Below are positions 4,687 through 29,365 of a DNA stretch of 29,639 nucleotides, in pieces (position 1 is the stretch's first letter; the number at the start of each line of letters is the position of its first letter). The notes beneath the pieces are model-generated. The model made no database searches, was not told the origin of the DNA, and saw only the letters and a program-made list of their open reading frames with translations. Position numbers and translations under genes: made by a program. Origin of the DNA: a virus. The DNA is taken from IMG/VR virus record IMGVR_UViG_3300030508_000019, one strand, 5' to 3'.

Positions 4687-4773
4687 TTATATTCTCTCTG
4701 CCTTACGTTTAAGCACGCCGTATTCTGCTCGTCTTGAAAGAGTAGGCTGTCTCCACTATATCCCCTTATCTTT

Positions 4774-7158: not shown

Positions 7159-7159
7159 A

Positions 7160-10100
7160 TTATGGTGTTATATCTACTGGTAAATTACTCGTTGTAGTTT
7201 GCGCTGGACCCAAAGTTTGAGCTATAGTACTAGTTGAAGCTGTAACCTTAGTTGTAGTAAGTCCCCCAGCATTTGCGGATCCCCCTGGTAAGGTCAGTGT
7301 AGCAAATGACTGCTGTGCATTAGCCGCACTGTTTTGAGCAATTAATAATTGTTCTTGCACCGCTGGGATTGGAGCTACAGTCCCAGATACTAATACGCTA
7401 ACTAGCTGCTGTTCGGCCAATCCAGCGTTTTTAGCGCTAACTAAACTAGCGGCCAAGGCGTTTTCTGGTTGAGCTGCATTTAACAAATTACTATTAGAAC
7501 CTGGTTGACTGTAATCTAATACTATTACAGTAACATCTGGTTGTATGGTATTTGTCGAATTTCCCCCGGTATTCGGTGAATTTGGAGCTGATGCTGAAGC
7601 TGGTGAAACCGATGTAGGTGTAGTATTTGTACTTTGTTGGGTAGCCATGGCCGTGGATAACATAGTCGATGGGTCACTTGTAGCCGTTGGAGTACCTAAA
7701 CCAGCAAACAAAAAAGCCTCCGTACTTTGAAAAGTTGTCTCATCTTGTAAATCTTGCCCATTTAACCCGTTAGTCTGAGGAATATTAATCCACCCCTGTT
7801 CGGTTATTTCACTGATGATTGTGTTGAGATCTTTCCATCTCCCCCATGGAAATGGGGATATTAATTCATATCCTTTATCATCTGTGTAAGGAATAACAGA
7901 ATTTGGATTACCACAAATATCCTTTACATAATCTCCATCCGCTGGTCGGCCTGGATAATTTGGGTCTTTTGCTCTTCCATTAAAATACCCCGTATCATTT
8001 ACGATAACATAAGTAGATGTAGGAGTACTGGCTTTATTACCTACGGTTGTTGCTAAGGTAGTGGATAGATAAGAATACACTTTTATTTGTTGATCTGTTG
8101 GACCAAATTTTGTTCCGTCAATGTTTTTCGTAACAGCGGGTAAAGATTGAGATACATTTAGCTCACTTGTCATATTAGTGTTTGTATTTTGATTACCCCC
8201 AGCGGTTTGTTGAATATATTGATTGTAACTTTGGGGTTGCGCGGGATCAAACACCGTAGCTGCGACTGGATTATTTGTCCACATATAAATTAAATTAGGG
8301 GCTGTGGTATAAGCGGAAAATTTTGTGGCCGGTGAATTACTAACATTGCCCGTAGTAGATGTTTGAGCTGTCTTAACCAAAACTCTAGGTCGGACTGTAT
8401 CACATACTATGGACATTGTAGCTGACCCCCCAACCTGATAATTTATAGCTACAGATTTTATGTATGCGTACATATCTTTGTGGGGTATAAATACGGGGAA
8501 TCCCAATTTCAATTCAGGGCGCATGGGAATAGTAAACGAGTAAGTACGGTACCCTCTATTTGTCCTAGCTGTTTCTGCGGCAGCGTGAGCGAATAGAGTA
8601 TATTTGTCTCCCATTGTAAGCCAGGGTACTTGCTGCATGGGTTCTTCCCTAAGACCAAACTTTGCTAGTTTTGTGACATCAATATACTCCGCTACTGGCT
8701 TTGCGGGTGCCGGAAAATTGTTCCCCTGCCACGGCATAATATTTCCTGTTATAGTGGTGCGCGTGCGTCGAATGGCGCTTTGATCTTCTGTTTCCTGTTC
8801 TGTTAACATTTCTGATAAATAAACCACAAAAGGGTTATTTTGCGGGTAAATTTGAGTCAGAGGATTCGTCATACTATTGCTAGTAGATGGTGGATTAATG
8901 CTACTAGCAGACACTGAATTACTAGAGGTAGTTGTTGTTGGCGTCGAGCCTCCACTAAGTGCAGTAGATATAGATGATTGAACTAAACTGTCAAAATTTT
9001 GAGGGCTGGAACTAGTTTGTTTAGACCGAGTACCTAAGTTTGTGACATCCAGATTGTACAAAGGTGGTTTGATAATAATCTTACCATCAATATCTTGATA
9101 TGCTTCAAAATCCATCTTCTTAACTACTTCACGAATAAGATCCAATCTATTAACAATAACACTCTCAGTAAGCTGTAAACTAGCGGGAGTTCTAAAAGGT
9201 AAAAATTGTTGTATTTTTTTATAATAAGGGGAGTTATCAGTAATCGTTTCAGTAAAAGTTTTTACGGGATGAGATGTAACACTAGCATACTTCTTATCTT
9301 TGTCCATCTTCCCTTTATTTTCATCTTCTTGTAATTGATCTAATTGCCCTAAAGTATCTTTGTCTGGCCCATAAATATGTACATCTTTAATCATATTCAT
9401 CAAAATGGCTTGCCATTTCGCCATGTAACCTCTAGTAACAGCGGAATAAAACATATCACTTGGAGTTAAATAACCTCCATCTGTGCTCCTAACTGAACTA
9501 GCTTGAAATCCATCCGATTGAAAACCTGTTGTGAAAGCTTTTGCTAAGATAGTAAAACAATTATTATCTCCAAAAATACTTTGCTGCCAGGTTAACATAC
9601 TCCCTAAAGTTGCCGCTGCCATTGCAGATGGGTGAACATTAATTTGCATCTTTTCAAGTAAGTGCATTGACCCTTGACATTGAATTGATATCTCCAGAGT
9701 TTTTCCATTATCGTTATAACTTATGTGAGATGTAATTCCCTTGAAAACCCGGCGATATACTGTATCTCCGTTTGATGCTAAGTAATATCCTTTAGCATAT
9801 ACTTGTACCTGCATCATAGTTTCTAAAAGATTGTTACCACCAGGCATTTTATACAAGTACCTTAAAAAATTTGGAACCTGCAAACCGATAGTGGCGTTGG
9901 GTACCATTATATCTGTATCATAAGAAGCGTTGAATGCTGTGACATGGTCATTAAAATTCACTAAAGTACTACTAGCTTTGGTTTTTGGATCGTCGATAAA
10001 GTAATTTGTCAAATAGGGGGTTCCCTCTAAATACACAATAACATCGGGAGCGGTCTTGATTATTTCTCTTTCTTGACAACTTTGGGACAAATTTCTAATA

Positions 10101-10264
10101 GTAGTAGCCGGAGTTTGGGATGGAACTGTACCCGTAACTCCTGTAGGTGATGTATTGGAGATAGGTAGTTGATTCGGGAGTGTAGAATTCTGCGTTTCTA
10201 CTGTTGCACCTGTACCTGTAACGGTAACTGCGTTATTCGGATCAAATGGAACTGGAATAGCCAT
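7160..10264 (-). CDS. Large virion structural protein (1034 aa) with Ser/Thr/Pro-rich linker segments. It has a C-terminal 40-aa module shared with the 484-aa lysin-domain protein
   Basis: Low-complexity linkers (SSSPQNFDSLVQSSISTALSGGSTPTTTTSSNSVSASSINPPSTSNS; TPTATSDPSTMLSTAMATQQSTNTTPTSVSPASASAPNSPNTGGNST). The C-terminus ...LTLPGGSANAGGLTTTKVTASTSTIAQTLGPAQTTTSNLPVDITP is near-identical to the C-terminus of ORF 11431..12885. Confidence 0.6.
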   Translation of the reverse strand: MAIPVPFDPNNAVTVTGTGATVETQNSTLPNQLPISNTSPTGVTGTVPSQTPATTIRNLSQSCQEREIIKTAPDVIVYLEGTPYLTNYFIDDPKTKASSTLVNFNDHVTAFNASYDTDIMVPNATIGLQVPNFLRYLYKMPGGNNLLETMMQVQVYAKGYYLASNGDTVYRRVFKGITSHISYNDNGKTLEISIQCQGSMHLLEKMQINVHPSAMAAATLGSMLTWQQSIFGDNNCFTILAKAFTTGFQSDGFQASSVRSTDGGYLTPSDMFYSAVTRGYMAKWQAILMNMIKDVHIYGPDKDTLGQLDQLQEDENKGKMDKDKKYASVTSHPVKTFTETITDNSPYYKKIQQFLPFRTPASLQLTESVIVNRLDLIREVVKKMDFEAYQDIDGKIIIKPPLYNLDVTNLGTRSKQTSSSPQNFDSLVQSSISTALSGGSTPTTTTSSNSVSASSINPPSTSNSMTNPLTQIYPQNNPFVVYLSEMLTEQETEDQSAIRRTRTTITGNIMPWQGNNFPAPAKPVAEYIDVTKLAKFGLREEPMQQVPWLTMGDKYTLFAHAAAETARTNRGYRTYSFTIPMRPELKLGFPVFIPHKDMYAYIKSVAINYQVGGSATMSIVCDTVRPRVLVKTAQTSTTGNVSNSPATKFSAYTTAPNLIYMWTNNPVAATVFDPAQPQSYNQYIQQTAGGNQNTNTNMTSELNVSQSLPAVTKNIDGTKFGPTDQQIKVYSYLSTTLATTVGNKASTPTSTYVIVNDTGYFNGRAKDPNYPGRPADGDYVKDICGNPNSVIPYTDDKGYELISPFPWGRWKDLNTIISEITEQGWINIPQTNGLNGQDLQDETTFQSTEAFLFAGLGTPTATSDPSTMLSTAMATQQSTNTTPTSVSPASASAPNSPNTGGNSTNTIQPDVTVIVLDYSQPGSNSNLLNAAQPENALAASLVSAKNAGLAEQQLVSVLVSGTVAPIPAVQEQLLIAQNSAANAQQSFATLTLPGGSANAGGLTTTKVTASTSTIAQTLGPAQTTTSNLPVDITP

Positions 10265-11431
10265 TTAAGAAACTCCGTTATAAAAATTAGACGCTGCCAC
10301 ACTAGTGGGGTTTAAAAGAAAAGATGTATTTGCCATATTATCTACGGATGTAGGAGCTACTTGTGGCAGGGTATTGTTAACATTAGCAGCCGCAACAGAT
10401 GGGGAGACTAAAGCTGGTTGACTATTCAATGTACTAAACCCAACACTAGAAATATTGGTTCCTGGTATATTTGATGGAGGTAAATTAGCCAACGATGATA
10501 CTGTAGTTGTACCATTTTGTGAAGTGGTAGCAGCCGAAGCCCATGCTCCATAAGTATGCCCTCGTTGTACATTATTGAGAATCAAATTTTGATACGGGGA
10601 TGTGGAGCGAAATCTCTCTTTCCATGCGATAAAACTGATTTGAAAATTCATCAGCCAAGGTGCTTCCGCCGATTGACTAATAGTAAGGGAATCAAACATA
10701 CCGTACCAAATAAAATTTCCTACCCACAATTCGACATCTTGGTGCATTTTGATTCTACGTCTGGTGAAATCCGCTGCGAGTGGGCCTTCAGCTGCTTGCT
10801 CTCCTTCAAACCAGTATCCGTTATTTTCAAACACCATGACCAAAGACTCTAAATTCCGATAGGAATCTGAAAATGGTTGAAACTGATCTGTAACTCCAAA
10901 GGCAAAATATTGGCCAGCGGTTTTACCGCTGAGATTTACTTGGAAAGAATCTTCTCCCCACACACCTATCTGCCAGCCAGCACGAGTCATAGCTTGCCCA
11001 TCTAAAGTTTGTCGATTGACTTGAACCTGAGACGGGTTAATGAGAAATCGAAAAATAGCTGCTGGTGCATTACCATTTTGTTGTCCGGTGGATGTAACTC
11101 CGCGATGTGGTATACGAACGAGTACATAATCCACGAAGGGTTTCATCGCCCCCGCTGTAAAAAAATCGCTATATTGCACAAGACTTGTTCGACCGGTGGC
11201 AGCGTAACCCTTATCTTGAGGGGATTTTTGTCCCCGTGCTGTATATGCTTTTTCAATCTGACTACTGGTATCGCTGGGGCTAATAGGACAGGGAATGATG
11301 CGTTTCTCTCCGCGAATAGGCAGTTGAACAGGGGATGTTTGCGCCGAATTTCCCGCAGTTATATTGAAATCACTAAAATCGGTACTTACATTTGATCCAA
11401 TATTGGAGTTGTTTGTATTTGTGCTCGCCAT
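10265..11431 (-). CDS. Virion structural protein (388 aa). Its core domain is paralogous to the central domain of the 484-aa lysin-domain protein
   Basis: TAATG start/stop overlap with the upstream gene. Shared motifs with ORF 11431..12885 are TRAGWQIGVWGE..SGKTAGQYFAFGVTDQF versus SRTGMHITLWGM..SGTTGVFMNQYGITDWF, and APWLMNFQISFIAWK versus SPFQWKFSFTFQV. Confidence 0.5.
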   Translation of the reverse strand: MASTNTNNSNIGSNVSTDFSDFNITAGNSAQTSPVQLPIRGEKRIIPCPISPSDTSSQIEKAYTARGQKSPQDKGYAATGRTSLVQYSDFFTAGAMKPFVDYVLVRIPHRGVTSTGQQNGNAPAAIFRFLINPSQVQVNRQTLDGQAMTRAGWQIGVWGEDSFQVNLSGKTAGQYFAFGVTDQFQPFSDSYRNLESLVMVFENNGYWFEGEQAAEGPLAADFTRRRIKMHQDVELWVGNFIWYGMFDSLTISQSAEAPWLMNFQISFIAWKERFRSTSPYQNLILNNVQRGHTYGAWASAATTSQNGTTTVSSLANLPPSNIPGTNISSVGFSTLNSQPALVSPSVAAANVNNTLPQVAPTSVDNMANTSFLLNPTSVAASNFYNGVS

Positions 11432-12885
11432 TAAATATCTCCCACGGGTCCTGAAGTTGTAGTTTGTACTGGACCTAAAGTTTGAGCTATGGTATTAGTT
11501 GCAGATGTAACCATAGTTGTGGTAAGACCTCCTACACTTGCGGATCCCCCACGTTCTGTCAATGTAACAATCGGCTGCGTTGTAGCTTGAGCCAGTAAAT
11601 TAATCTTAGGGAGGGGTTGAGTGACTTGAAAATTGGGATAATACAATGATGTATAGGTATTCTCAACTTGAAATGTAAAAGAAAATTTCCATTGAAACGG
11701 GCTGTCCGCATCTTGGGTCCAATTCAAAGACTTGAAATACCCCAAATAAACATTGTTTCTATACTTCATCCCCACATACCCGCGTGTCATAACATCATTG
11801 TTACGCCCATGTTGTTGAAATGAACTGGCTCCTACTTTGGTAGACCAACCATTCGGGGCTTGTTGTTCTTGTTCGCCCATAGTTCCGTTATAACTATCCG
11901 TGTGATACCACACATTACCGTTCATTTGGAATAACTTCAAAAATTCTACAAAACAATCCTGTGCCGCTACTCGATAGGCTTCTGGGTTTTGGTTAATAGC
12001 CCTTTCTGTATCGGGATTGTTACTAAAACCAGCTCCTACCAATTTAGCTATCTCATCATTAATTTGAGCGGTGCTGAACCAATCTGTAATACCGTATTGA
12101 TTCATAAACACTCCCGTAGTGCCGCTACCATTGATGAGATCCGGTTGCATACCCCAGAGGGTGATATGCATACCTGTACGCGATGGGGTGCGATTGTAAA
12201 CATGCTTACTTGCTATTTCAAATGTAGTCATTGATGTGTTGAGTTCAATGACGATAGGTTGCTGATTAGTGGGGTTATTCAGCGTTTGTGTGGGGTCATT
12301 ACGATCCAGGTATACTACAAAACTCACTGGTTGTACCATACCACGCGCATGAGGATTTCCAGTGACTAAATTTCTATCCAAATACCATGGCGTGGCGCTT
12401 AGACTTGGCTCCGGAACCTGTAAAGGCGGTGTAAGATCAGCCGCTGATAATCCGTAATTAGTACCGGTTGTGTTAGGCCCAATAATATTTCCTACTTGAG
12501 GCGCTACTGGAGTATTTAGTACATTAAACCGGGAAATTCCTAAAGTACTAGCAACTTGAGTTGCTGTATTTGGGTCTAGATGGTCCAAAAAAGCACCGCT
12601 TCCAAAGGTAGTCCAAGCACGGTAACCTTGGGCTTGGAAAATAGCGAAGGCTGCGTCAGCATTAGCTTGAGGATCTGTTATTACATTTTGGTCATACTGT
12701 GGCCAATAATGCCCATCTATTTGCCAAAGGCCTACTGACCCCCCAGGGTCGTCTGGATTATATTTATTGGGATTCCCACTACTCTCCGCTAAAGCAATAG
12801 CGGCCATGATGGGTATTTGATCTCCTGTAAAACCTGCATTAGCTGCAAAACCCTCTAATTGGTTGAAATTATATATTGTTGGCAT
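11431..12885 (-). CDS. Tail-associated peptidoglycan hydrolase (484 aa). N-terminal lytic-transglycosylase (lysozyme-like) domain, central structural domain, and the shared C-terminal module
   Basis: The N-terminus IALAESSGNPNKYNPDDPGGSVGLWQIDGHYW matches the catalytic Glu-Ser ... G-L-(M/W)-Q signature of family-1 lytic transglycosylases (SLT domain), as found in virion-associated lysins. It lies immediately downstream of the tape-measure-like gene. Confidence 0.7.
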   Translation of the reverse strand: MPTIYNFNQLEGFAANAGFTGDQIPIMAAIALAESSGNPNKYNPDDPGGSVGLWQIDGHYWPQYDQNVITDPQANADAAFAIFQAQGYRAWTTFGSGAFLDHLDPNTATQVASTLGISRFNVLNTPVAPQVGNIIGPNTTGTNYGLSAADLTPPLQVPEPSLSATPWYLDRNLVTGNPHARGMVQPVSFVVYLDRNDPTQTLNNPTNQQPIVIELNTSMTTFEIASKHVYNRTPSRTGMHITLWGMQPDLINGSGTTGVFMNQYGITDWFSTAQINDEIAKLVGAGFSNNPDTERAINQNPEAYRVAAQDCFVEFLKLFQMNGNVWYHTDSYNGTMGEQEQQAPNGWSTKVGASSFQQHGRNNDVMTRGYVGMKYRNNVYLGYFKSLNWTQDADSPFQWKFSFTFQVENTYTSLYYPNFQVTQPLPKINLLAQATTQPIVTLTERGGSASVGGLTTTMVTSATNTIAQTLGPVQTTTSGPVGDI

Positions 12886-12927
12886 ATTGATTATTGATTA
12901 TTGATTATTGATTATTGATTATTGATT
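12886..12927. repeat. Perfect heptanucleotide tandem repeat (ATTGATT)x6 (AATCAAT on the coding strand). It spans the TMP stop codon and ends 1 nt from the lysin start codon
   Basis: Six exact 7-bp units are read directly from the sequence. They resemble STRR-type heptamer arrays of heterocystous cyanobacteria. Confidence 0.9.
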
Positions 12928-16904: not shown

Positions 16905-17057
16905 AAAGCTCCTGTTAAGTGGGGTTGCAGTTAAAAAAACCGAAATCACTAACGGTTAATACTCTTTATTTGAAAATTATCTCTAAAATGTTGAAAATAT
17001 GGTCTTTACAATTAGCCAAAACCAGTGTTTTTGATGTATACTAAGAGTGGAGGGAAG
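16905..17057. promoter_or_regulatory. Divergent intergenic control region between the minus-strand virion operon and the plus-strand membrane-protein gene
   Basis: AT-rich 150-bp non-coding gap between divergently oriented genes. It carries a TATACT -10-like hexamer followed by a GGAGGG SD before the ATG at 17058. Promoter positions are not determinable by eye. Confidence 0.3.
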
Positions 17058-17639
17058 ATGAAAACACTTATTCGAATCATACTTGAGCAGTTGCTGATAT
17101 TTAGTCTCCTGCTGATTGCCCCTGTGTTATACATCGTGGTTCCAATAATTGCCTTAGCAGTGACCTCCGACGGCGATTTGTTGGGTGGTTTAGCCTTCGT
17201 TTACTTGTTGTTTGGACCCTTTGTTGCCAGTTTTTGGATGGTCATCACGCGCATGTATAGTCGGCACCAGCGCCTTACCGCTGATGGTTCGCCATATCAT
17301 AGCAGTTTCAAGGGTATGTTTATTGCGTGTGGCTGGATGATTGCTGGTCTCCTTTTATCCGCTGTTTTTGAATTTCTTTTTGTGTGGGTATTTCATTTCC
17401 CAAAAACTGGCGATACCATTGGGTGGATATTATGGTTTACTGCCGCTCCTTTTACTGCTTTCTCCCCTGTATTTTTAGGTTGGATACTTCGAGATCCTTG
17501 GCGCAACTGGCTAAAAAATCGAGAATGGGATAACAATATGAAAATTATGGCGGAAATTGGAGGGGAGTGTAGAGAAGGTAGCGTAACGTGGAACTGGAGG
17601 ATTCAACATGGCTACACCCCAAAACCTTGGATTGATTAG
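17058..17639 (+). CDS. Integral membrane protein (193 aa, about 4-5 TM helices). Function unknown
   Basis: ATG preceded by a GGAGGG SD. Strongly hydrophobic segments (LIRIILEQLLIFSLLLIAPVLYIVVPIIALAV; FVYLLFGPFVASFWMVI; MIAGLLLSAVFEFLFVWVF; ILWFTAAPFTAFSPVFLGWIL). The 3' end overlaps the convergent gene by 4 bp. Confidence 0.55.
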   Translation: MKTLIRIILEQLLIFSLLLIAPVLYIVVPIIALAVTSDGDLLGGLAFVYLLFGPFVASFWMVITRMYSRHQRLTADGSPYHSSFKGMFIACGWMIAGLLLSAVFEFLFVWVFHFPKTGDTIGWILWFTAAPFTAFSPVFLGWILRDPWRNWLKNREWDNNMKIMAEIGGECREGSVTWNWRIQHGYTPKPWID

Positions 17640-18721
17640 CGGTACGACCTAAGCTTACTCAGCATTCCGTTAGTAGCATCCTGTTCAAAATTTTCTCTTT
17701 TCGAGGGTGGGGGATTTGGCGATCTCCCTTCTCGTAATGCTTGTTGACGCTCTCGGACTTGTTGATCCGTCATAATCACCGTTGTTTCAAAATTTATTCC
17801 CGCTGCGGTAATGCCCCTATCCTTGCGAATCTTCTCAATCTCCTGCTTCTTGGCTTCTGCTTCATCAATCATTTGACTTTGCCATGCTTCTATGACTTTT
17901 TCATGTTTATCTCCTTCCATCATACCTTTCATTTCCCGCATTAAATCTTCCACACTGTCGCCTACATGCCCCCAGCCGTCATTCTTGTTCACTTCCTTGG
18001 GTACACTGACAACTTTCTCCCATAGCTCGTCTGAGTTCGTCTCTAACGACCTGGCGACCCCTTTTAATTCGTTGGCTATAGGGTCAGCGCTCTTCCCAGC
18101 CCATGGACGGACAATAAATAAAGCGTTCATATTTTCTTCTAAGCGCTTTTTTGCCTGTTCCCTGTAATTGCAAAGAGTTACCCACATACTGGAATGATCG
18201 GGGGGTGCCATAAGATTGATGATTTTACTATCCGGAAGAGTGATGATTTTATTTTCGAAGGATGCCAATCGCTCTCCCTTCCCATACCACAAGGTTTCCG
18301 ATGATTGGGTTGTAACATAGGCATTCAAATAGGGGAAAAGAGAAACATCATAATTGCTCATTTGGCGTATGACTTCTGTCAAACTTCGAATTTCAAATCC
18401 TTGCATAGATTCGATTTCTTCTTTGTTGAGGGAAGTCGCATGGAGTAGGGTTAAAGCAATGTAATCATTAGGTTCTCGTACCCAGCGCTTAAGTATTCGG
18501 CGTTCTTGGGTGTGTATACCACGCACCCAGCCGATTTGTTTATCCCCGCTCATTAAGGGACGAATACGAGCCCCGATTTCAATCAATTCCTCACAATTAT
18601 CGGTAATTTCTCGCTTTACTTTTTCGACAATCTCAGCGGGAGCTTTTTTCAAATCCCCGTCAGCGATTCGACGCATTAATTCCATGCCCATCGAATTTTG
18701 ACTACCGTGGCTTATCTGCAT
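17636..18721 (-). CDS. Hypothetical protein (361 aa), highly charged and helical. Possible early or replication-associated function
   Basis: Long ORF transcribed divergently from the replication module. No recognised motif. Confidence 0.45.
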   Translation of the reverse strand: MQISHGSQNSMGMELMRRIADGDLKKAPAEIVEKVKREITDNCEELIEIGARIRPLMSGDKQIGWVRGIHTQERRILKRWVREPNDYIALTLLHATSLNKEEIESMQGFEIRSLTEVIRQMSNYDVSLFPYLNAYVTTQSSETLWYGKGERLASFENKIITLPDSKIINLMAPPDHSSMWVTLCNYREQAKKRLEENMNALFIVRPWAGKSADPIANELKGVARSLETNSDELWEKVVSVPKEVNKNDGWGHVGDSVEDLMREMKGMMEGDKHEKVIEAWQSQMIDEAEAKKQEIEKIRKDRGITAAGINFETTVIMTDQQVRERQQALREGRSPNPPPSKRENFEQDATNGMLSKLRSYR

Positions 18722-19288
18722 TTATTTATCCTCGGTTGCCTTTACAGCGCCCCTCATTCCTGATTTTTTGAGAACCTCTCGCTCCAGAGCACGTTGTTCT
18801 TCCAATTCTTTACGCCCAAATTTTGTCTCCATTTCTCTCTCAACTTTGTCCATTATTTGCTCGCGTTCCTCTTCTACTTTCTCAAACGTACGTACTAATT
18901 TATTAGGTTCCGGTGCTTTGTACAATCCTATGGTTGTAAAAACCCGCGGTTCCAGGAAGGCGGCCCGATATAAAATGAAAACTCTGTGGATTACTGATAA
19001 AGGTATAGCATTCATCACTTTCAAGCCTTCTTCTGGAGTATTAACTTTGAGACCCGATATTTCATCCAAAGCGTAGGCCAATTGAACACGCCGCTTATCT
19101 TGTTTCGGTGGGAATTTCATACTAAGCTCTTCTCGCCAGGACAACAAACGAAAAATAAATTCGTACTTCAACAACGAAATTTTCATTGTACTCATGCAAT
19201 TTTGATGCTCATAGTCCCAATACCCAAAATCACTATCATAGTAAATACGAAGAAATCTCGAAGGGTGCAGTATTGAAAATAGTAGCAT
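18722..19288 (-). CDS. Hypothetical protein (188 aa) with a charged coiled-coil C-terminus
   Basis: The ORF is contiguous with the downstream gene. GGAGAcc is present before the first ATG. Confidence 0.4.
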   Translation of the reverse strand: MLLFSILHPSRFLRIYYDSDFGYWDYEHQNCMSTMKISLLKYEFIFRLLSWREELSMKFPPKQDKRRVQLAYALDEISGLKVNTPEEGLKVMNAIPLSVIHRVFILYRAAFLEPRVFTTIGLYKAPEPNKLVRTFEKVEEEREQIMDKVEREMETKFGRKELEEQRALEREVLKKSGMRGAVKATEDK

Positions 19289-19325
19289 GGTCTCCGGGTT
19301 GCTCCGCGAGATTTGTTCTGAGGTA

Positions 19326-19350
19326 GGGCATCAGACCTCAACTGATGCCC
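19326..19350. promoter_or_regulatory. Palindrome GGGCATCAG-N7-CTGATGCCC in the divergent control region between the 188-aa gene and the primase-helicase gene. Candidate operator
   Basis: Perfect 9-bp inverted repeat read from the sequence. No flanking U-tract on either strand, so it is not a typical intrinsic terminator. Confidence 0.4.
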
Positions 19351-19370
19351 CCTCGATTTGAGGAGAAATT

Positions 19371-22840: not shown

Positions 22841-23566
22841 ATGTCATTAACAAATCCATACTGGTCTAAAATGACTAAAGAAGAATGGGATAATCTTGAA
22901 CCAAAACACCAAGAGGAAATGAGACATAATCATGATCGTGAATTAATGTCAATGTCAAAAAAGCGAAATAAGGTCTCAAATGCTCCTATAAAAATTAATC
23001 CAAATATTGCCGCCCAGAAAAGTGTTTCAGATAATAGTGATAATAGTACTAACCATCCTGTAACTATAGAATTACCAAAAACTAAATTGAAAGGATTACG
23101 AGACTGGGATGAACAAGTTGGAGAATTTTCCGCTGAAAGACTTCGTGATTGTATTATCTATCAATTAGATGTAAAGAAAAATTCTTGGTATATAAGAACT
23201 TTAACTACAGGGTTTGTTTTTAAGAACGCGGCCAAGCTTGATGCTGACACACCACCAGATTACAGATATGAAGTAGACCCACTATTTGGATCATTCACAT
23301 CTGGTGATCAAACCCATCCAAAAATACTTCGTATGCCGAAGAATAATGAAGAGCGTATGGAAATAAGAAATAGACACGGAGTAAATAACGGAACTATTCC
23401 CTTTCTCGTCAAATTGAACTGTGCTACATGTAAGGGGACTGGTACTTACGAAATATCTTCTTACCCAAACGCTAAAAGTAATATTATTAGACTTCATGAA
23501 AAAGTTATTTGTGATTGTGTGTATGGAAATTCCACAGACGATGGAAAATCTTCACCTTCCCCATAA
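22841..23566 (+). CDS. Hypothetical protein (241 aa) with a C-terminal CxxCxGxG-type zinc-finger motif
   Basis: ATG immediately follows the upstream stop. The motifs are NCATCKGTGTYE and a downstream CDC. Confidence 0.5.
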   Translation: MSLTNPYWSKMTKEEWDNLEPKHQEEMRHNHDRELMSMSKKRNKVSNAPIKINPNIAAQKSVSDNSDNSTNHPVTIELPKTKLKGLRDWDEQVGEFSAERLRDCIIYQLDVKKNSWYIRTLTTGFVFKNAAKLDADTPPDYRYEVDPLFGSFTSGDQTHPKILRMPKNNEERMEIRNRHGVNNGTIPFLVKLNCATCKGTGTYEISSYPNAKSNIIRLHEKVICDCVYGNSTDDGKSSPSP

Positions 23567-23667
23567 AAATTTTCTGTATCACTAGTGAAATTTTTTCCCA
23601 ATCCCCGAAGTATATATGACCGCTTCAGTATTAACACATAGAACATTCCTAAGAGAGAAAGTATTTC

Positions 23668-25584
23668 ATGGTAAGTAAATTTGAGTTATCGCCGTATTCT
23701 ACATTCATTCATAAATCCCGTTACGCCCGCTGGTTAGAAGAAAAAACTCGAAGAGAAAATTGGGATGAAACCGTAAATCGATATATTACTTATTTCGCTC
23801 ATCGTATTCCGAAATCCGATCGTGAAGCAACATCCGCTGAAATTGAGAAAGCTATTTTTCATATGGATGTCATGCCATCAATGCGAGCGATGATGACCGC
23901 AGGTCCCGCTCTGGACAAAGACAATGCTGCGGGTTTCAATTGTAGCTATTTAGCTGTAGATGATCCTCGTGCTTTTGATGAAGCAATGTACCTCAGTATG
24001 TGCGGTACAGGTGTAGGATTTTCTGTTGAACGTCAGTATGTAAATCAACTTCCTATTATTGCTGAAAATTTCTATCCAGTAGATACCTGTATTAAAGTGC
24101 GTGATTCTAAAATTGGCTGGTCGAATGCGTTCCGACAATTGCTTAGTCTACTTTATTCAGGCTCTATTCCCACATGGGATATGAGTGCTGTTCGCCCAGC
24201 AGGATCACTTTTAAAAACCATGGGGGGTAGGTCCAGTGGTCCCGAACCCTTAGATCGTCTTTTCAAATTCTCCGTTAATCTCTTCCAAAAAGCCGCGGGG
24301 CGTAAACTAAATTCTATTGAATGTCACGATTTGATGTGTATGGTCGCAGATATTGTAGTTGTTGGAGGGGTGCGACGTAGCGCTATGTTGTCTCTTTCCA
24401 ATCTCTCAGATGAGCGTATGCGTAACGCCAAAAACGGTCAATGGTGGGATGAGAAAAACCCTCAAGGGGCTCCCTGGCGTAGACTAGCAAACAATTCTGT
24501 AGCATACACAGAAAAACCAGAACCAGAAATTTTTATTCGAGAGTTTCTTACTTTGATAGAATCAAAATCTGGAGAGCGGGGAATTTTTAATCGAGTATCC
24601 GCCGTCAATAGCGCAAAGAAAACAGGTCGCCGGAAATGGGAAGGTATAAATTTTGGCTCAAATCCCTGTGGTGAAATAAATTTACGCCCTAACCAATTTT
24701 GTAACCTATCCGAAGTAGTTATAAGACCTCACGATACTAAAGCTACCATTAAACGTAAAGTTCGCATCGCTGTAATCATCGGCTGCTTACAATCTACTTT
24801 AACTGATTTCCGATATCTTCGCAAAGAGTGGCAAAAAAATACTGAAGAAGAGCGTTTATTAGGGGTGAGTCTCACAGGAATTATGGACAATGTGATGATG
24901 TCCACTAATGGCGCGGATCTAGCAAAACTATTAGATGAACTTCGTGAATACACAATCGAGGTCGCTACAGAGTGGGCTGGGAAGCTGGGTATAAACGTCC
25001 CTACGGCGATTACTTGCATCAAACCATCTGGAACAGTCTCCCAACTCGTAAACTGCTCCCCAGGCATCCATAGCCGTTACTCGCGTTGGATTAAACGAGG
25101 TACGCAAGAAGATGCTAAGAGTCCAGTAAACACTTTTTTGAAATCTATAGGTTGGTTGTATGAACCTGAATTGAACAAACCACAAGACTCTGATCTTTTC
25201 TTTTTCGCCTTAGAATCCCCAGATATTAGTATATGTAGGAATGATCGTAATGCTATCGAACAATTAGAAATTTACAAAACTTACAAACTTCATTGGACTG
25301 AACATAATCCTAGCTGCACTGTGTATGTAAGAGAATCTGAATGGACGGATGTATTGGCGTGGATTTACAAACATTTCGATATTATTGGTGGGGTTAGTTT
25401 TTTACCCTACGATAACGGAATTTACCGTCAGGCCCCATTCACTGAAATTACCGAAGCTGAGTATGTGAAATTGAAAGAAAAAGAACCGGTAATCGACTGG
25501 TCGAAATTACCAGATTTTGAAAAAGAAGACATGACTACAGCTTCCCATGAAATGGCCTGCTCCGCTGGCGGATGCGAAGCCTAG
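23668..25584 (+). CDS. Ribonucleotide reductase, single-chain, probably class II adenosylcobalamin-dependent (NrdJ-like), 638 aa
   Basis: Active-site finger-loop motif FGSNPCGEINL (class II NPCGEI; class I would be NxCxE with Leu). C-terminal Cys pair (CSAGGCEA). No NrdB-like small-subunit gene nearby. Confidence 0.7.
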   Translation: MVSKFELSPYSTFIHKSRYARWLEEKTRRENWDETVNRYITYFAHRIPKSDREATSAEIEKAIFHMDVMPSMRAMMTAGPALDKDNAAGFNCSYLAVDDPRAFDEAMYLSMCGTGVGFSVERQYVNQLPIIAENFYPVDTCIKVRDSKIGWSNAFRQLLSLLYSGSIPTWDMSAVRPAGSLLKTMGGRSSGPEPLDRLFKFSVNLFQKAAGRKLNSIECHDLMCMVADIVVVGGVRRSAMLSLSNLSDERMRNAKNGQWWDEKNPQGAPWRRLANNSVAYTEKPEPEIFIREFLTLIESKSGERGIFNRVSAVNSAKKTGRRKWEGINFGSNPCGEINLRPNQFCNLSEVVIRPHDTKATIKRKVRIAVIIGCLQSTLTDFRYLRKEWQKNTEEERLLGVSLTGIMDNVMMSTNGADLAKLLDELREYTIEVATEWAGKLGINVPTAITCIKPSGTVSQLVNCSPGIHSRYSRWIKRGTQEDAKSPVNTFLKSIGWLYEPELNKPQDSDLFFFALESPDISICRNDRNAIEQLEIYKTYKLHWTEHNPSCTVYVRESEWTDVLAWIYKHFDIIGGVSFLPYDNGIYRQAPFTEITEAEYVKLKEKEPVIDWSKLPDFEKEDMTTASHEMACSAGGCEA

Positions 25585-25612
25585 AAATTTCCAAAAATGA
25601 GTATTGTACAGT

Positions 25613-25891
25613 ATGGAAATACATCTAGAATTTAAAATTACTCTCGCTAGCGGGGAAATCGTTACTCAAGATATTCAACTCCCCGCTGATCCAAATTACC
25701 CCATCGACAAACAAATGAAAGCTCTCATGCAAACCATGATAAACCAATATTCTACCGTGGGTATGCTACGAGAAGTTGAACCTGGGGTTTACAGGTTGCT
25801 TTGCCATAGCCAAATATATTGGGTAGAATGTTCTTTACCGAAGATTGTTTTGGCAAATGCTACGGAAGTACCGCAGGTGACTCTTGAATGA
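25613..25891 (+). CDS. Hypothetical protein (92 aa from the ATG; TTG at 25604 possible)
   Basis: ORF directly downstream of the RNR gene. No SD and no recognised motif. Confidence 0.35.
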   Translation: MEIHLEFKITLASGEIVTQDIQLPADPNYPIDKQMKALMQTMINQYSTVGMLREVEPGVYRLLCHSQIYWVECSLPKIVLANATEVPQVTLE

Positions 25892-26237
25892 TTTCCTTTG
25901 GATTGAATGGAAGATAGTGATTTTATTGATAGCTTTTTTCTGGTTGTTTATGGCGATTCATGAACAAAAAGCTTTATCAAAACCTATAGCTGTTCAAAAT
26001 CCTTGGTGCGATGCCTCTCCAGTTGATGGGGCAGGAAAACCAGAAATTTGTGATCACCAATGAACGATTATTAAAGATTTTGCATACACAGGTGTAAAAT
26101 GCTGTTCCTTATGTCACGAAACGGGGTATGATATATCAGGACTGGAAGTTTGTATAGTTGACGGACAGCCAGTTTTATTGTGTTGTACATTACATGTATT
26201 TTTTTATCCGCTAAAAGAAGATGGGTCGAAAATTACC

Positions 26238-26268
26238 CCCGAAGAAAAACTTCTTCGGGCAATTTTTG
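26238..26268 (+). terminator. Rho-independent terminator. Stem cccgaagaa / ttcttcggg (9 bp, loop aaac) followed by caattttt
   Basis: Perfect 9-bp stem, 4-nt loop and T-run read from the sequence. It lies in a 440-bp low-coding gap. Confidence 0.5.
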
Positions 26269-26329
26269 GAGGACGACCTCACCTTCAAGCAAAATAAAGA
26301 CTACTGACCTTTTTCAGTAGGGGGACTTT

Positions 26330-26566
26330 ATGGATGAGATTGTTACTCCCGAAGCACAAATCGAAACGCTTCTTCAAATTCTCGCCGCTATATTGGATAA
26401 ACAAGGTGGGGAGATTGTTTTAAGCCGTAAAGACTTTGAAATGTACGAAGGTGCCCCTGTTGTTGTCCGACGCTTGTCCGGTGATTATGTCTTAATTCGC
26501 ATCGCTTACGAAGATGAAGTTGCGGAAACGGATGAGTTGGATATTCCAGAAACTCCTCAAACCTAA
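26330..26566 (+). CDS. Small acidic hypothetical protein (78 aa)
   Basis: ATG with an upstream GGGGGA. Acidic C-terminus (EDEVAETDELDIPETPQT). First ORF after the terminator. Confidence 0.45.
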   Translation: MDEIVTPEAQIETLLQILAAILDKQGGEIVLSRKDFEMYEGAPVVVRRLSGDYVLIRIAYEDEVAETDELDIPETPQT

Positions 26567-26657
26567 CAAAACAAAGAAGAAATCAAATTTAGCCATTTTC
26601 AGTGTTTCCGATGTATACTAGGAATATGAACGGAATTCACAGGGAGTGAGGATTTAA

Positions 26658-27152
26658 ATGAACGTAATTGAGTACTGCACAGAGGAAGTGCGTAGACAAG
26701 GGCATGATATTACTCTGCTTGACGGCATTCAGAGAGTTGGTTGGATGTTAGACGGTTGGACTTACGCTCTTGTTAACGTTTCCGATCGCATGCCTGATCT
26801 AGGTGATGCAATCAGTTTGGGTATGCTTGTGGAAGTTAAGAAGAATGTTAACGGACTGCGTAACTGTGACATCCGAGTAGGTGATTGTATATGCCCAAGA
26901 CCAGATGAACTTCGTCGGCTGCTTAACAGGCTGTTCGATCTCCGTGATAGTATGACACCAATCGAGTTTTACAAAGAGTTTGAGATGATTCATCCGTTTG
27001 TTGACGGTAATGGGCGAACGGGTAAGATTCTGTTCAACTGGTTAAATAGGACGTTATTTGATCCAATCTTTCCGCCGAACGACTTGTTTGGTTATGTTGT
27101 AGCTAAACTGCCAGACGGACAGCGCGTTGCTGCCGAATTACCGACCGCATAA
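26658..27152 (+). CDS. Fic/Doc-family (Fido) domain protein (164 aa)
   Basis: IHPFVDGNGRTGKILFNWL matches the Fic active-site motif HPFx(D/E)GNGRxxR, with the last Arg replaced by Lys. A strong SD (GGAGTGAGGA) precedes the ATG. Confidence 0.7.
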   Translation: MNVIEYCTEEVRRQGHDITLLDGIQRVGWMLDGWTYALVNVSDRMPDLGDAISLGMLVEVKKNVNGLRNCDIRVGDCICPRPDELRRLLNRLFDLRDSMTPIEFYKEFEMIHPFVDGNGRTGKILFNWLNRTLFDPIFPPNDLFGYVVAKLPDGQRVAAELPTA

Positions 27153-27166
27153 ATGAGGAGATTCCC

Positions 27167-27418
27167 ATGCTTGGAGATGCGACTTATTCCGAAAGAGAAA
27201 TAAAGCTGTTCGCCCATTTCAAAATGGCGGACATTGCCTACAACATCCAACCGCCCCTACTTTATACGATGCTGGCGTATAGAGCGTTCTTGACGAACGA
27301 TCAGACCGAGTATGCCTCCGCGTTGCGGCGGTGCCTTGAGGCTCTTGAAAGCTTTGAAAAAGACAAGGTTTATCGCTGCACCCCTGAGTGGGATGCGCTT
27401 ATTGGAGACTGCGAATAA
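27167..27418 (+). CDS. Hypothetical protein (83 aa)
   Basis: GAGGAG SD 6 nt upstream. Starts 14 nt after the Fic stop. Confidence 0.45.
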   Translation: MLGDATYSEREIKLFAHFKMADIAYNIQPPLLYTMLAYRAFLTNDQTEYASALRRCLEALESFEKDKVYRCTPEWDALIGDCE

Positions 27419-27678
27419 TGACAAATGCGGAATTTGTTGCTGCTCTCAGTGAAAAATTCGGTTGCGACTTTGAACTAAGCACTCACGGACGCAAGTTTAC
27501 TAGGGTCACCAAGTACGGCTCTGCTTATTGCTTCCTTGATGCAGACGGCAACATCTATAAGGCCGCCAGCTGGAATACTCCTGCCAAGGGAGTGCGCAGC
27601 ACACTTGCTAGTGTGGATATGACAGAAGTTGATGAGTACGGCTGCTGGCTCTACTGGCGGCGAAAAGAGAAAAAGTAA
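27418..27678 (+). CDS. Hypothetical protein (86 aa)
   Basis: TAATG overlap with the upstream ORF. The ATG at 27418 gives MTNAEFVAALSEK... Confidence 0.45.
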   Translation: MTNAEFVAALSEKFGCDFELSTHGRKFTRVTKYGSAYCFLDADGNIYKAASWNTPAKGVRSTLASVDMTEVDEYGCWLYWRRKEKK

Positions 27679-27700
27679 TCGGGCAGTACCGGAGCAACTA

Positions 27701-27898
27701 ATGTCACTTGAGAAAATGATTTGCTGGCGTTGCCACGGTACTGGTGGGAAACGAAAAGTTCCCGCACGCCCGCGACATACCGTGGTTTGTAACTACGGGC
27801 ACAAGCACACAGTACCGGCCAAAAAAGCCACCACGGTATTTTGCAAAGAATGCGGGGGTAGTGGTATTGTTTTGGAAGTAAACTTCGGGAGGCAATAA
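27701..27898 (+). CDS. Small zinc-ribbon protein (65 aa) with two CxxCxGxG motifs
   Basis: CWRCHGTGG and CKECGGSGI match the DnaJ-type CxxCxGxG pattern. GGAG SD 6 nt upstream of the ATG. Confidence 0.45.
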   Translation: MSLEKMICWRCHGTGGKRKVPARPRHTVVCNYGHKHTVPAKKATTVFCKECGGSGIVLEVNFGRQ

Positions 27899-27930
27899 CC
27901 AGTCAAAATCCAAGATATGAAAGGGACAAC

Positions 27931-28590
27931 ATGGCAGTAGCGGGAGCAGCAAAGGCGAAGAAGGTGTGTGAGGTGTTTGACACACCATATATCATTACCC
28001 TAGTTCAACAAGCAAAAGCTGGAGATGAAGCGGCTTTTTCAACTCTATATCACAAATTTTATCGGTATTTGAGTAATACTATAAGGCGCGTTCTTCCCGG
28101 GCAACAACCGGATACAGCGGACTGGCTCGCCAACAAAGCCATGACCCAAGCCTGGTTAAATCTCAAAAATTTCAATGAGAAATCCACATTTCAAACCTGG
28201 ATTACACGCATTGCCATCAACGAATGGAAGATGTATATTCGTGAAGAAACATCCGTAGGTCGTCAACGAGACAAAGAACTTTCTCTAAATGAAATTTTGG
28301 ATGAAAATCCTAGCGACGGTAAATTTGGACAACGGGACATTAATTTAGCTGGTATCGCTGATCGACAAATGCTTGATTTGTCGCTTAAAGGTATCCCTAG
28401 TGTTTACCGTGATATTGTGTATTTAAAATTGTGGATGGGATTTTCCGTGAAGGAAATTGAAAATATCTTGGGAGTGAAAAGACCCAAAAAAGTCGGAATG
28501 AATATCGTTAAGGGTCGTAAGATGTTGCTGGAACAGGTAAAAAAGAATTCTACAAATAGTCCTAGACAAACAAGGATGACCGGGGTATAA
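27931..28590 (+). CDS. ECF-type (group IV) sigma-70 family RNA polymerase sigma factor (219 aa)
   Basis: Region 2: AKAGDEAAFSTLYHKFYRYLSNTIRRVL and TFQTWITRIAINEW. Region 4 helix-turn-helix: YRDIVYLKLWMGFSVKEIENILGVKRPKKVGMNIVKGRKML. Confidence 0.85.
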   Translation: MAVAGAAKAKKVCEVFDTPYIITLVQQAKAGDEAAFSTLYHKFYRYLSNTIRRVLPGQQPDTADWLANKAMTQAWLNLKNFNEKSTFQTWITRIAINEWKMYIREETSVGRQRDKELSLNEILDENPSDGKFGQRDINLAGIADRQMLDLSLKGIPSVYRDIVYLKLWMGFSVKEIENILGVKRPKKVGMNIVKGRKMLLEQVKKNSTNSPRQTRMTGV

Positions 28591-28638
28591 TCATTTTACT
28601 GTTAGTTTCGTGTGGCAGTCGTTGCAGTTGTGCTCCAA

Positions 28639-28688
28639 CCAATCCGCTGCATGTTTTTTCGTGAGAGCCTAGACATGCAGCGGATTGG
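28639..28688. promoter_or_regulatory. Perfect 15-bp inverted repeat ccaatccgctgcatg-N20-catgcagcggattgg between the sigma-factor gene and the PEP-CTERM gene
   Basis: Read directly from the sequence. The loop begins with TTTTTT, and there is no U-tract after the full stem on either strand. Candidate operator, processing site or atypical terminator. Confidence 0.5.
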
Positions 28689-28717
28689 CTGCTATAAAAA
28701 TATAGGGGGAATTAAAA

Positions 28718-29365
28718 ATGAGAATAAGTAAGGTAACAATTTTTGCGTTAATTTTGAGTTTGCTTTCGTTTGTTTCTGCGGCCTCTGCCGATCCCATCAC
28801 TCTGACGAATCTATTCGGCACCATAAGTATTAGCGATATCGGCGTAGGTGGAATGGGCACGATTGGTTCAACTACCATTACATCTCACGGTTCGGAGCTA
28901 ACAAACTTTGAAGGAATAACCGCTCCGCATGGGCATTCGCTTGGTTATGTAGGGTTTTCTACCGGCGTGCTAGAAAGCGGAAGTGTGCTAAACGGTGGGG
29001 TATTTTCCAGTACCGGGTCCACTTTCGATGTTATCGGTAAGGGTAAATTTGGACAACCTAAGGGAAATATTTTTATCGGCAGCTTTGTAGGTCCTATTGA
29101 CTGGACATTAATCTCCCAAAATAAGCAGGAGCGAACCTACACTTTAACAGGTGAGTTGTCTGGAACACTCTGGAATGGGCGTTTTACAACTGGGTACACT
29201 ACCCAAACCATCAATATACTCAACAAGAATCAACTGAACGGCGGTGTGGGGCACATTGGGCTTGGTTCTACGAGTATTTCCGCCCCTGAACCAGGGACTT
29301 TAGGTCTGTTGGGAACAGGACTCGTAGGGATCGCTGGAATGTTTCGCCGGAAGTATTTTTCTTAA
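28718..29365 (+). CDS. Secreted PEP-CTERM domain protein (215 aa), an exosortase substrate
   Basis: N-terminal signal peptide (MRISKVTIFALILSLLSFVSAASA). The C-terminus has a PEP motif plus a TM helix plus a basic tail (SAPEPGTLGLLGTGLVGIAGMFRRKYFS), the PEP-CTERM signature. Confidence 0.8.
   Translation: MRISKVTIFALILSLLSFVSAASADPITLTNLFGTISISDIGVGGMGTIGSTTITSHGSELTNFEGITAPHGHSLGYVGFSTGVLESGSVLNGGVFSSTGSTFDVIGKGKFGQPKGNIFIGSFVGPIDWTLISQNKQERTYTLTGELSGTLWNGRFTTGYTTQTINILNKNQLNGGVGHIGLGSTSISAPEPGTLGLLGTGLVGIAGMFRRKYFS

Follow-up and report, generated by a model that had tools for sequence, protein, structure and literature searches.

The window analysed here is a stretch of 29,639 nucleotides of virus DNA (IMG/VR record IMGVR_UViG_3300030508_000019), and its element of interest is an array of six plus-strand open reading frames (ORFs), o1 to o6, which ends with a gene for a sigma factor of the extracytoplasmic function (ECF) type. 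An earlier note on this DNA had read the array as one compact operon in which a Fic toxin, a zinc protein and the sigma factor might form a toxin/regulator or host-takeover unit. Based on the results presented below, we consider it probable that the array lies at the promoter-distal end of a conserved string of early genes and carries a swapped-in accessory cassette, and that it is not a dedicated toxin/anti-sigma/sigma system. The array comprises o1 (26330..26566, 78 aa), a conserved neighbour of the sigma gene and, as had been stated, acidic (pI 4.05); o2 (26658..27152, 164 aa), hereafter mini-Fic; o3 (27167..27418, 83 aa, pI 4.77), an orphan; o4 (27418..27678, 86 aa), a DUF7717 protein; o5 (27701..27898, 65 aa, pI 9.9), which bears two CxxCxGxG repeats; and o6 (27931..28590, 219 aa), the ECF-type (group 4) sigma factor. 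The coordinates and sizes of the six co-directional frames agree with the earlier description, as do their ribosome-binding sites: each start is preceded, 5-9 nt away, by a purine-rich Shine-Dalgarno (SD) sequence, and the stop of o3 overlaps the start of o4 as TAATG (27416-27420). The reported gaps of 14-32 bp hold after o2, o4 and o5 (14, 22 and 32 nt), but not between o1 and mini-Fic, where the gap is 91 nt. From mini-Fic through sigma the genes share one strand, short gaps and SDs and contain no internal promoter or terminator, so that their co-transcription is likely; o1 is separated from them by a conserved promoter-like site at 26589..26619. Because this site sits in the o1-Fic gap, the sigma-containing transcription unit more likely starts after o1, and the single operon proposed for o1 through sigma is retained only in its larger, downstream part.

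Relatives of the sigma gene were recovered from Logan, JGI and IMG/VR contigs whose lengths reach 332 and 436 kb. In the assembly collection, 93 blocks index the exact sigma protein, and the 24 that were read gave 25 contigs, the longest of 178 kb. The fetched copies of the same phage are almost clonal, and a selection analysis of the small ORFs across the seven other copies (0-1 nt differences) had no power. A scan of viral contigs with the sigma protein alone returned no relatives; alignment A3 was needed to find them, and the orthologues in syntenic phage loci are 35-85% identical. In the 14 distinct related loci having enough upstream sequence, the gene order is constant: p241, class II ribonucleotide reductase (RNR), p92, an optional gene of about 58 aa, a Cys-rich gene, acidic o1, a position of variable content (the slot) and sigma. 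In the window the RNR gene lies at 23668-25584 (plus strand, 638 aa), and p92, the first small gene of the conserved string, at 25604..25891 (plus strand), with same-position orthologues 61-98% identical in L013, L014, L017 and other relatives. After sigma, a 50-aa gene and DUF4031 follow in most of the more distant relatives. Thirteen of the 14 loci carry an o1 homologue (47-99% identical; missing in L038), and o1 is the only small ORF of the array that travels with sigma. The slot holds a p309 gene of about 310 aa in eight loci and a p106/p117 gene of 103-117 aa in five, and is empty in one; additional genes before sigma are a 60-aa Cys4 protein (zn60) in three lineages (L014, L017 and L039) and a 96-aa gene in one. 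Homologues of mini-Fic, o3, o4 and o5 occur in none of the 14 loci, and o3, o4 and o5 likewise do not co-occur with Fic in homologous loci. Pfam and PHROG searches of p106, p117, p309, p92, the Cys-rich protein and zn60 gave only PHROGs of unknown function. Sigma belongs to the conserved core genes of a group of large phages from soil and peat. A clade with contigs of up to 436 kb, a fixed five-gene sigma neighbourhood and a conserved, often leaderless promoter (described below) offers an entry point to transcription control in uncultured jumbo phages.

The boundaries of the Fic-o3-o4-o5 block were placed by comparing the window with its closest relative, L013. The two share 99% protein identity in o1, 98% in p92, 97% in the PEP-CTERM protein encoded after sigma and 85% in sigma. 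In L013 the slot is a single 106-aa gene, p106, with the same junctions as the Fic-o3-o4-o5 block of the window. Collinearity of the two extends across the promoter-like element and the slot-gene ATGAA (26626-26630); beyond it they diverge, until collinearity resumes at GTCAAAAT (27902), 30 nt before the start of sigma. The replacement block (26631..27900, about 1.27 kb) is specific to this lineage, and it leaves a relic of the slot-gene start on the plus strand: a mini-ORF of seven codons (26626..26649; MNGIHRE-stop) that opens with ATGAA and terminates within the SD of mini-Fic. The block also differs in composition, with a GC content of 0.477 and a GC content at third codon positions (GC3) of 0.43-0.57, compared to a GC3 of 0.23-0.38 in the flanks (RNR to o1, and sigma). 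Since p106-type genes fill the slot in several deep branches and the Fic block is found only here, the block is the derived state, a recent, lineage-specific insert. Mini-Fic, o3, o4 and o5 have independent histories, as seen from their homologues elsewhere (described below), and the slot is a hot spot for accessory genes.

The promoter-like site is itself part of the conserved arrangement. On the plus strand of the window it reads TTAGCCA, N17, GTATACT, a sigma-70-like element, and in 11 of 12 relatives examined the same type, T(T/C)AG(A/C)CA, N17-18, GTATA(C/A)T, stands between the acidic and slot genes (the -10 of L026 is GTATAAT). In 10 of the 12, the slot-gene ATG follows the -10 by 5-6 nt (L013, L017, L021, L027, L028, L031, L034, L036 and L040, and L020 if GTG is its start), and because the ATG lies only that far past the -10, this implies a leaderless slot-gene mRNA, as predicted from sequence, in this phage clade. 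The window retains the ancestral ATGAA after the -10 before it diverges. Several relatives with a longer spacer have a second promoter copy directly before sigma. A 35-nt element of the window at 26589-26623 is 80% identical to 17012-17046. The pattern of this promoter class occurs at four sites in the window, compared to 0.6 in shuffled sequences; these include that of the PEP-CTERM gene, which lies on the plus strand inside the 3' end of the sigma gene (28562..28591; CTAGACA, N17, TATAAT), matches 11 of 12 consensus positions and is conserved in L013. A further site of the class is found further down the genome (L007, about 11762). In general, the class looks like an ordinary housekeeping type, in which case sigma and the slot genes would be read early by the host holoenzyme. 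Aside from this, the copies at 17012 and 26589 share their spacer sequence as well (CAGTGTTTnnGATG), which suggests a common regulator site or a duplication.

The assignment of o6 as an ECF sigma factor is upheld by two models above their cut-offs. PF04542 (sigma-2) matches residues 39-107, regions 2.1-2.4, at 33.4 bits (cut-off 24), and the whole-protein ECF-type model TIGR02937 matches residues 35-200 at 49.7 (cut-off 42.9). The sigma-4 model PF08281 stays below threshold in the window protein (17.4 against 25.7) and is present in orthologues P0004 to P0008. The protein has neither region 1.1 nor region 3, and its 219 aa (ECF length being about 170-220 aa) leave 23-34 aa outside the profile as an N-terminal extension. 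In a PDB sequence search, SigW and RpoE were the best matches. All phage orthologues share an N-terminal extension rich in Ala and Lys and about 23 aa long, M-x-x-A-A-A-K-A-K...(Y/F)D(S/T)P (27931-28000; columns 1-24 of alignment A3), and homologues from cells and crAss-like phages align only from about residue 13-24. The nearest cellular homologues are 26-31% identical over the full length and about 40% in sigma-2, and derive mostly from metagenome-assembled genomes of Acidobacteriota, including Ca. Acidiferrum, Terriglobia and Bryobacterales. Together with the metagenome records of related sequences, many of whose names point to soil, bog or wood, an acidobacterial host fits and is possible, although the phage GC content of 41% is low for that phylum.

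The earlier note was correct that no anti-sigma gene follows sigma: the next gene encodes a secreted PEP-CTERM protein, and neither an anti-sigma profile match nor the HxxxCxxC motif of zinc-associated anti-sigma (ZAS) factors was found among the ORFs of the array. Downstream of two Acidobacteriota homologues (L110 and L112), likewise, no obvious anti-sigma gene was seen. The absence in the window is expected rather than anomalous, because phage-encoded sigma factors are established, ECF-like ones among them. Phage phiEco32 encodes the ECF-like gp36, which works with the helper gp79 (PMC12276001), and jumbo phages that have no RNA polymerase of their own often encode sigma homologues (reviewed in PMC13282480); ECF-type sigma factors are also annotated in deposited phage genomes, for example those of crAss-like phages. 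Similar to phiEco32 gp36, the sigma of Salmonella phage 7-11 and the 'sigma-W' genes of crAss-like phages, the window protein is a two-domain (sigma-2 and sigma-4) factor of about 200 aa in a lytic-type phage, has no membrane anti-sigma and presumably redirects the host core RNA polymerase. It differs in being only 27-33% identical to the crAss-like phage factors, in that gp36 is not among its PDB matches at E 1e-5, and in carrying the clade-specific extension. The window sigma gene is a phage sigma gene of an already known kind.

The identification of o2 as a Fic protein stands on domain score, motif and fold. PF02661 matches at 42.1 bits (cut-off 24; E 1.7e-10), and the motif HPFVDGNGRTGK at residue 112 follows the pattern HxFx(D/E)GNGRxxR except for the final Arg, which is a Lys throughout the family. 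The AlphaFold2 (AF2) model, built from a 32-sequence alignment, has a mean predicted local distance difference test score (pLDDT) of 91.9 and consists of six helices and a beta-hairpin. In Foldseek its best match is FICD, with a TM score of 0.65-0.68 (query-normalised up to 0.68), followed by matches to SoFic, CdFic, IbpA-Fic2 and NmFic, and by profile alignment the flap and the catalytic loop of FICD are matched. The family is tightly conserved, about 150 aa long, and comprises 566 clusters at E <= 1e-5, typically 57-68% identical; an exhaustive profile search returned 107 clusters (50% identity) at E <= 1e-30 and 839 at E <= 1e-10, almost all of 145-250 aa. No member was found among 50,697 deposited phage genomes, the Fic proteins of viruses in BFVD exceed mini-Fic in size and share only 13-19% identity with it, and PHROG profiles match around the motif only. 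Invariant in the family are H-P-F-x-D-G-N-G-(R)-x-G-K, where R is nearly invariant, and the N-terminal E-E-V-x-R-Q-G-H at the end of helix 1. Regulated Fic enzymes have an inhibitory Glu that is paired with the final Arg of the motif. The inhibitory motif (S/T)xxxE(G/N) is absent from mini-Fic and from every neighbour, including o1 and o3; by reading the family alignment together with the secondary structure of the model, rather than by residue-level superposition, the inhibitory Glu and the motif Arg appear to be replaced by Gln and Lys. Mini-Fic thus shares with class II Fic AMP-transferases (FICD/HYPE, SoFic) the Fic fold, the flap and the HPFxDGNGR motif; in contrast to them it is half as long (about 150 aa across the family, 164 aa in the window), lacks the TPR and winged helix-turn-helix domains, ends its motif with an invariant Lys instead of Arg, and has an N-terminal helix with E-V-x-R-Q-G where (S/T)xxxE(G/N) would be expected. 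Most likely, mini-Fic acts alone and, as a transferase predicted to be constitutively active, modifies a host protein by AMPylation or in a related way. The family, with hundreds of clusters found in large metagenomic phages, is a compact, apparently unregulated and so far uncharacterised enzyme.

The window copy departs from its family at one end. It lacks the C-terminal PIxNP and closes with 19 unrelated low-confidence residues, YVVAKLPDGQRVAAELPTA (27094-27152). A frameshift was considered and rejected, and since no other frame encodes the lost PIxNP, a recombination junction in the last codons is likely. Homologues of mini-Fic were found in eight other phage contexts (47-68% identical), of which L001-L003 and L103-L105 belong to the mini-Fic family and L005-L006 match the motif region over about 57 residues. 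Of these contexts, four (L001, L003, L103 and L105) were read in detail and show small phage genes in succession, on contigs 87-200 kb long. The eight contexts have no common neighbour, and no sigma, o3, o4 or o5 gene is nearby; in L003 the Fic gene adjoins a related RNR gene.

The remaining small proteins gave few matches, and PDB sequence searches with o1, o3, o4 and o5 returned nothing significant. For o1 there is a weak match to phrog_37448 (E 3e-4) and no Pfam or PDB match. For o3, no match was obtained in Pfam, PHROG, NCBIfam, PADLOC or PDB, and outside this phage none of the loci fetched has a homologue. The o4 protein belongs to DUF7717 (PF24835, 33.6 bits, cut-off 27), a small protein common in phages, and it matches the widespread PHROGs phrog_5014 (E 8e-13) and phrog_3274 (E 4e-11). 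The description of o5 as a CxxCxGxG protein is right as to the two repeats, CWRCHGTG at residue 8 and CKECGGSG at residue 48, which are conserved in P0010 and P0011; the DnaJ_CXXCXGXG model PF00684, however, scores 18.3 bits, under its cut-off of 32.7, and the match to Anti-TRAP is also below threshold. In having two such repeats within a protein of the 50-65-aa class, o5 resembles DnaJ-type zinc knuckles and anti-TRAP (RtpA); it differs from them in its sub-threshold scores and in a 36-residue spacer between the repeats with a conserved C-NYGH-KH. The AF2 model of o5 is all-beta with a pLDDT of 58, a low confidence that is too poor to support a fold search. In 5.8 billion proteins, o5 forms three sequence clusters, and its sole relative outside the lineage (69% identical, on L019) is surrounded by small genes of other kinds, with an HNH endonuclease close by. 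As a separate observation, TROVE/Ro60-like proteins are encoded on L019 (1271-2647) and on the mini-Fic contig L103 (11515-12456), and L019 also encodes Cpn10 and ClpP.

Three explanations in which the cassette and sigma work as a unit have to be weighed against an accessory cassette that merely shares the sigma transcript. The earlier note had pointed to the zinc protein as an anti-sigma factor, and o5 could be a dedicated regulator of sigma, acting as an anti-sigma that depends on zinc or as a co-factor that would stabilise sigma on RNA polymerase, the role of gp79 towards gp36 in phiEco32. Its place 32 nt upstream of sigma on the same predicted transcript, the presence of the different Cys4 protein zn60 at the same position in L014, L017 and L039, and the existence of small phage proteins that partner a phage sigma (PMC12276001) are consistent with this. 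Like the ZAS factors RsrA, RsiW and ChrR, o5 is small, Cys-rich and encoded beside an ECF sigma gene. It differs from them as follows: a regular-expression search found no HxxxCxxC motif in o5, nor in any other ORF of the array; the gene is upstream and not downstream of sigma; the predicted fold, at low confidence, is all-beta and not that of a helical anti-sigma domain; and o5 does not co-occur with the sigma family. A small zinc protein is missing from 11 of the 14 related sigma loci, among them that of the closest relative, L013, and no sigma gene was found within 10 kb upstream and 5 kb downstream of the L019 homologue. Homology of o5 and zn60 was tried and rejected (hhalign probability 0.8%). 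Taken together, a regulatory role of o5 towards sigma is very improbable, and we give it the least credit of the three.

Fic toxins are known in pairs with small antitoxins, such as VbhT/VbhA and, on phage P1, Doc/Phd, and mini-Fic might similarly form a FicTA-like toxin-antitoxin, abortive-infection or superinfection-exclusion module with o1 or o3, both of which are small and acidic (pI 4.05 and 4.77). Mini-Fic resembles Doc and VbhT as a small Fic-fold enzyme on a phage or mobile element, and the PADLOC models of SoFic and PDC-S04 match it; but these matches are at motif level, about 25 residues, and are the only ones in the array, the other ORFs having none. Doc, in turn, has a motif of the kinase type, HxFx(D/N)(A/G)NKR, and Phd as its antitoxin, whereas mini-Fic is of the GNGR type; FicTA modules include an antitoxin bearing (S/T)xxxE(G/N), whereas mini-Fic has no antitoxin-like partner present or conserved, the motif being missing from o1, o3 and Fic alike. 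Moreover, o1 is conserved in relatives that have no Fic, and an o3 homologue is beside none of the eight other mini-Fic genes, which share no conserved neighbour. Such a module is thus scarcely more probable than the preceding proposal. A third explanation joins Fic to sigma directly: mini-Fic would modify a component of host transcription, such as sigma-70 or RNA polymerase, and thereby let the phage sigma take over, by analogy with the ADP-ribosylation of RNA polymerase by T4 Alt/Mod. The two genes are on one predicted early transcript, the Fic fold and catalytic residues are intact with no inhibitory Glu, and phages are known to encode enzymes that modify the transcription machinery of the host covalently (PMC13282480). 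On the other hand, the Fic-sigma pairing is limited to one phage lineage, hundreds of mini-Fic genes have no adjoining sigma gene, and the 14 sigma loci have no Fic. The predicted co-transcription in this lineage appears to be the sole support for synergy, and we regard the proposal as unlikely, if somewhat less so than the other two. The same low credence is given to its wider form, in which mini-Fic represents a large unstudied family of constitutively active effectors, here placed on the sigma transcript to modify the host transcription machinery for the phage sigma. The toxin/regulator unit of the earlier note therefore finds no backing in the distribution of either gene, and "host-takeover cassette" would be reasonable as a loose label for early accessory genes.

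By combining these results, a sequence of events may be proposed for the accessory cassette. The ancestral 106-aa slot gene would have been replaced, from codon 2 to its stop, by the 1.27-kb block from a higher-GC source, a block made up of four unrelated accessory genes, each with its own SD: mini-Fic, an orphan, the DUF7717 protein and a DnaJ-type zinc mini-protein. The host holoenzyme would read the sigma-70-like promoter just upstream of the slot, which in most relatives would yield a leaderless slot-gene mRNA, plus sigma where it is adjacent. Sigma would then compete for the host core RNA polymerase and redirect it to phage promoters, and it would be controlled by the timing of its own expression, so that no anti-sigma is needed. 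The cassette would be expressed early by its position on the sigma transcript, not by working with sigma. The apparent toxin/anti-sigma/sigma system would accordingly be a look-alike, a conserved phage sigma gene beside an accessory-swap hot spot, and the value of this result is mainly corrective. Several points weigh against this proposal. Two unrelated small zinc proteins, o5 and zn60, stand directly upstream of sigma in different lineages, which could hint at a convergent function rather than chance. The window mini-Fic might be impaired by its loss of PIxNP. Co-transcription and leaderless starts are deduced from sequence features. The data cover 40 kb of a 178-kb genome, and a sigma partner or a phage RNA polymerase is possible elsewhere in it. 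Finally, a recurring ECF-like motif or target promoters of sigma were not found by reading the intergenic regions by eye or by scans for a -10 of GTATA[ACT]T and for sigma-70-like -35/-10 pairs, with no explicit scan for AAC...CGT; the search for an ECF-type promoter, which the earlier note had proposed, yielded only the sigma-70-like class, to which the promoter of the PEP-CTERM gene also belongs. The promoter upstream of sigma's own unit is of this class too (TAGCCA, N18, TATACT), not the autoregulated AAC...CGT type.

The two ends of the array had been described as a strong terminator and a perfect palindrome. The hairpin at 26238-26259, with a 9-bp stem and a T-run, is the sole strong terminator-like site upstream of the array; it falls, however, within the C-terminal coding part of the conserved Cys-rich gene (remnant at 26064..26297, plus strand) and encodes PEEKLLRAIFG, the stem consisting of the PEEKLLR codons and the T-run of the AIFG codons. 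The peptide is kept in nine related loci, and the complementarity of the stem is lost in most of them. Because the peptide is conserved and the complementarity mostly is not, the hairpin is mainly a by-product of coding sequence, and the proposal of a terminator before the array is not sustained. Terminator-like sites are not enriched in the region (7 observed, 5.7 +/- 2.5 in shuffles). In the window, an 11-bp deletion (26060-26075) has broken the Cys-rich gene four codons past its ATG, leaving MNDY-stop, as seen by alignment with L013 and L012; the deleted bases are CAGAAAACCTG in L013 (3413-3440) and CAAAAAACCTG in L012 (about 770-800). The sibling copies L007, L011 and L012 retain the 11 bp, with an IS605-family TnpB gene (347 aa) inserted a few bases upstream, and the deletion may be an excision scar.

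After sigma, a real and conserved inverted repeat was found at 28636..28691, between the sigma and PEP-CTERM genes. It is not the perfect 15-bp palindrome described, but has 19-nt arms (28636-28654 and 28673-28691) with one mismatch, 15 positions being perfect, and an 18-nt spacer. In L013 the arms are identical to those of the window and the loop is replaced by one 7 nt shorter, and because the arms are kept while the loop has been swapped, the structure is under selection. The RNA fold of 28596-28720 has an energy of -48.1 kcal/mol (z -5.2), no T-tract was found 3' of the repeat, and the repeat lies about 40 nt downstream of the promoter-like site TAGACA, N17, TATAAT (28563-28591). It is best described as a hairpin in the 5' untranslated region of the PEP-CTERM gene or between the genes. 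The PEP-CTERM gene itself (28718-29365) encodes a secreted protein with a sorting signal (PF07589, 26.9 against 20.7; TIGR02595), is confined to the window lineage and L013, has its own sigma-70-like promoter and conserved 5' hairpin, and is the most variable gene among the near-clonal copies (2-9 nt differences).

The window as a whole is phage DNA. A minus-strand block at 1330-19288 codes for tail-like, SLT-lysozyme and CBM5/12 proteins, and from 19371 on all genes are on the plus strand. Rfam and tRNA scans over the window gave no matches, and a DNA search of the region against deposited phages gave none either. In L013 the RNR gene (1-2937) is interrupted in frame by about 1.4 kb, giving 978 aa up to the truncating contig end compared to 638 aa in the window; the insert is likely an intein or a homing endonuclease. 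Upstream of the RNR gene, the blocks ATCRCCAGTGAAAWTTTTTC and ATAGWTGTCGCC are conserved across the clade (alignment A8). Palindromes of A5-6/T5-6 are found in intergenic regions only and are weakly enriched (13 with one mismatch allowed, compared to 6.5); they have no common downstream element. Examples such as GAAAAAATTTTTTAGG occur at 23564-23610 and, in L007, at 14330, 14503 and 17695, and often begin at the stop codon of the preceding gene. The palindromes and the blocks upstream of RNR could represent a second promoter class or a regulator site.

Between the two gene blocks, the element CCGGGTTGCTCCG upstream of p968 is invariant and single-copy. In this divergent intergenic region (19294-19364) it remains invariant though the p968 proteins of the relatives are only 54% identical, and next to it comes a hairpin (19326-19350), with a stem that covaries in L014 and L017 and a loop, CCTCAA(G), that is kept. 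The SD region of p968 contains (C)TTGAGG, the complement of this loop, in all three sequences, and a loop-SD pairing with translational control of p968 is possible. Within the minus-strand block, a tandem heptamer, ATCAATA on the minus strand, is repeated about 6-7 times at 12885-12933 and fills the whole 34-nt gap between two virion genes, right before the point at which the SLT-lysozyme gene (11431..12885) starts. Finally, a 123-nt direct repeat (7191-7313 and 11456-11578, 80% identical) lies near the 3' ends of the minus-strand genes 7160..10264 and 11431..12885, which suggests a shared C-terminal module of two tail-associated proteins.

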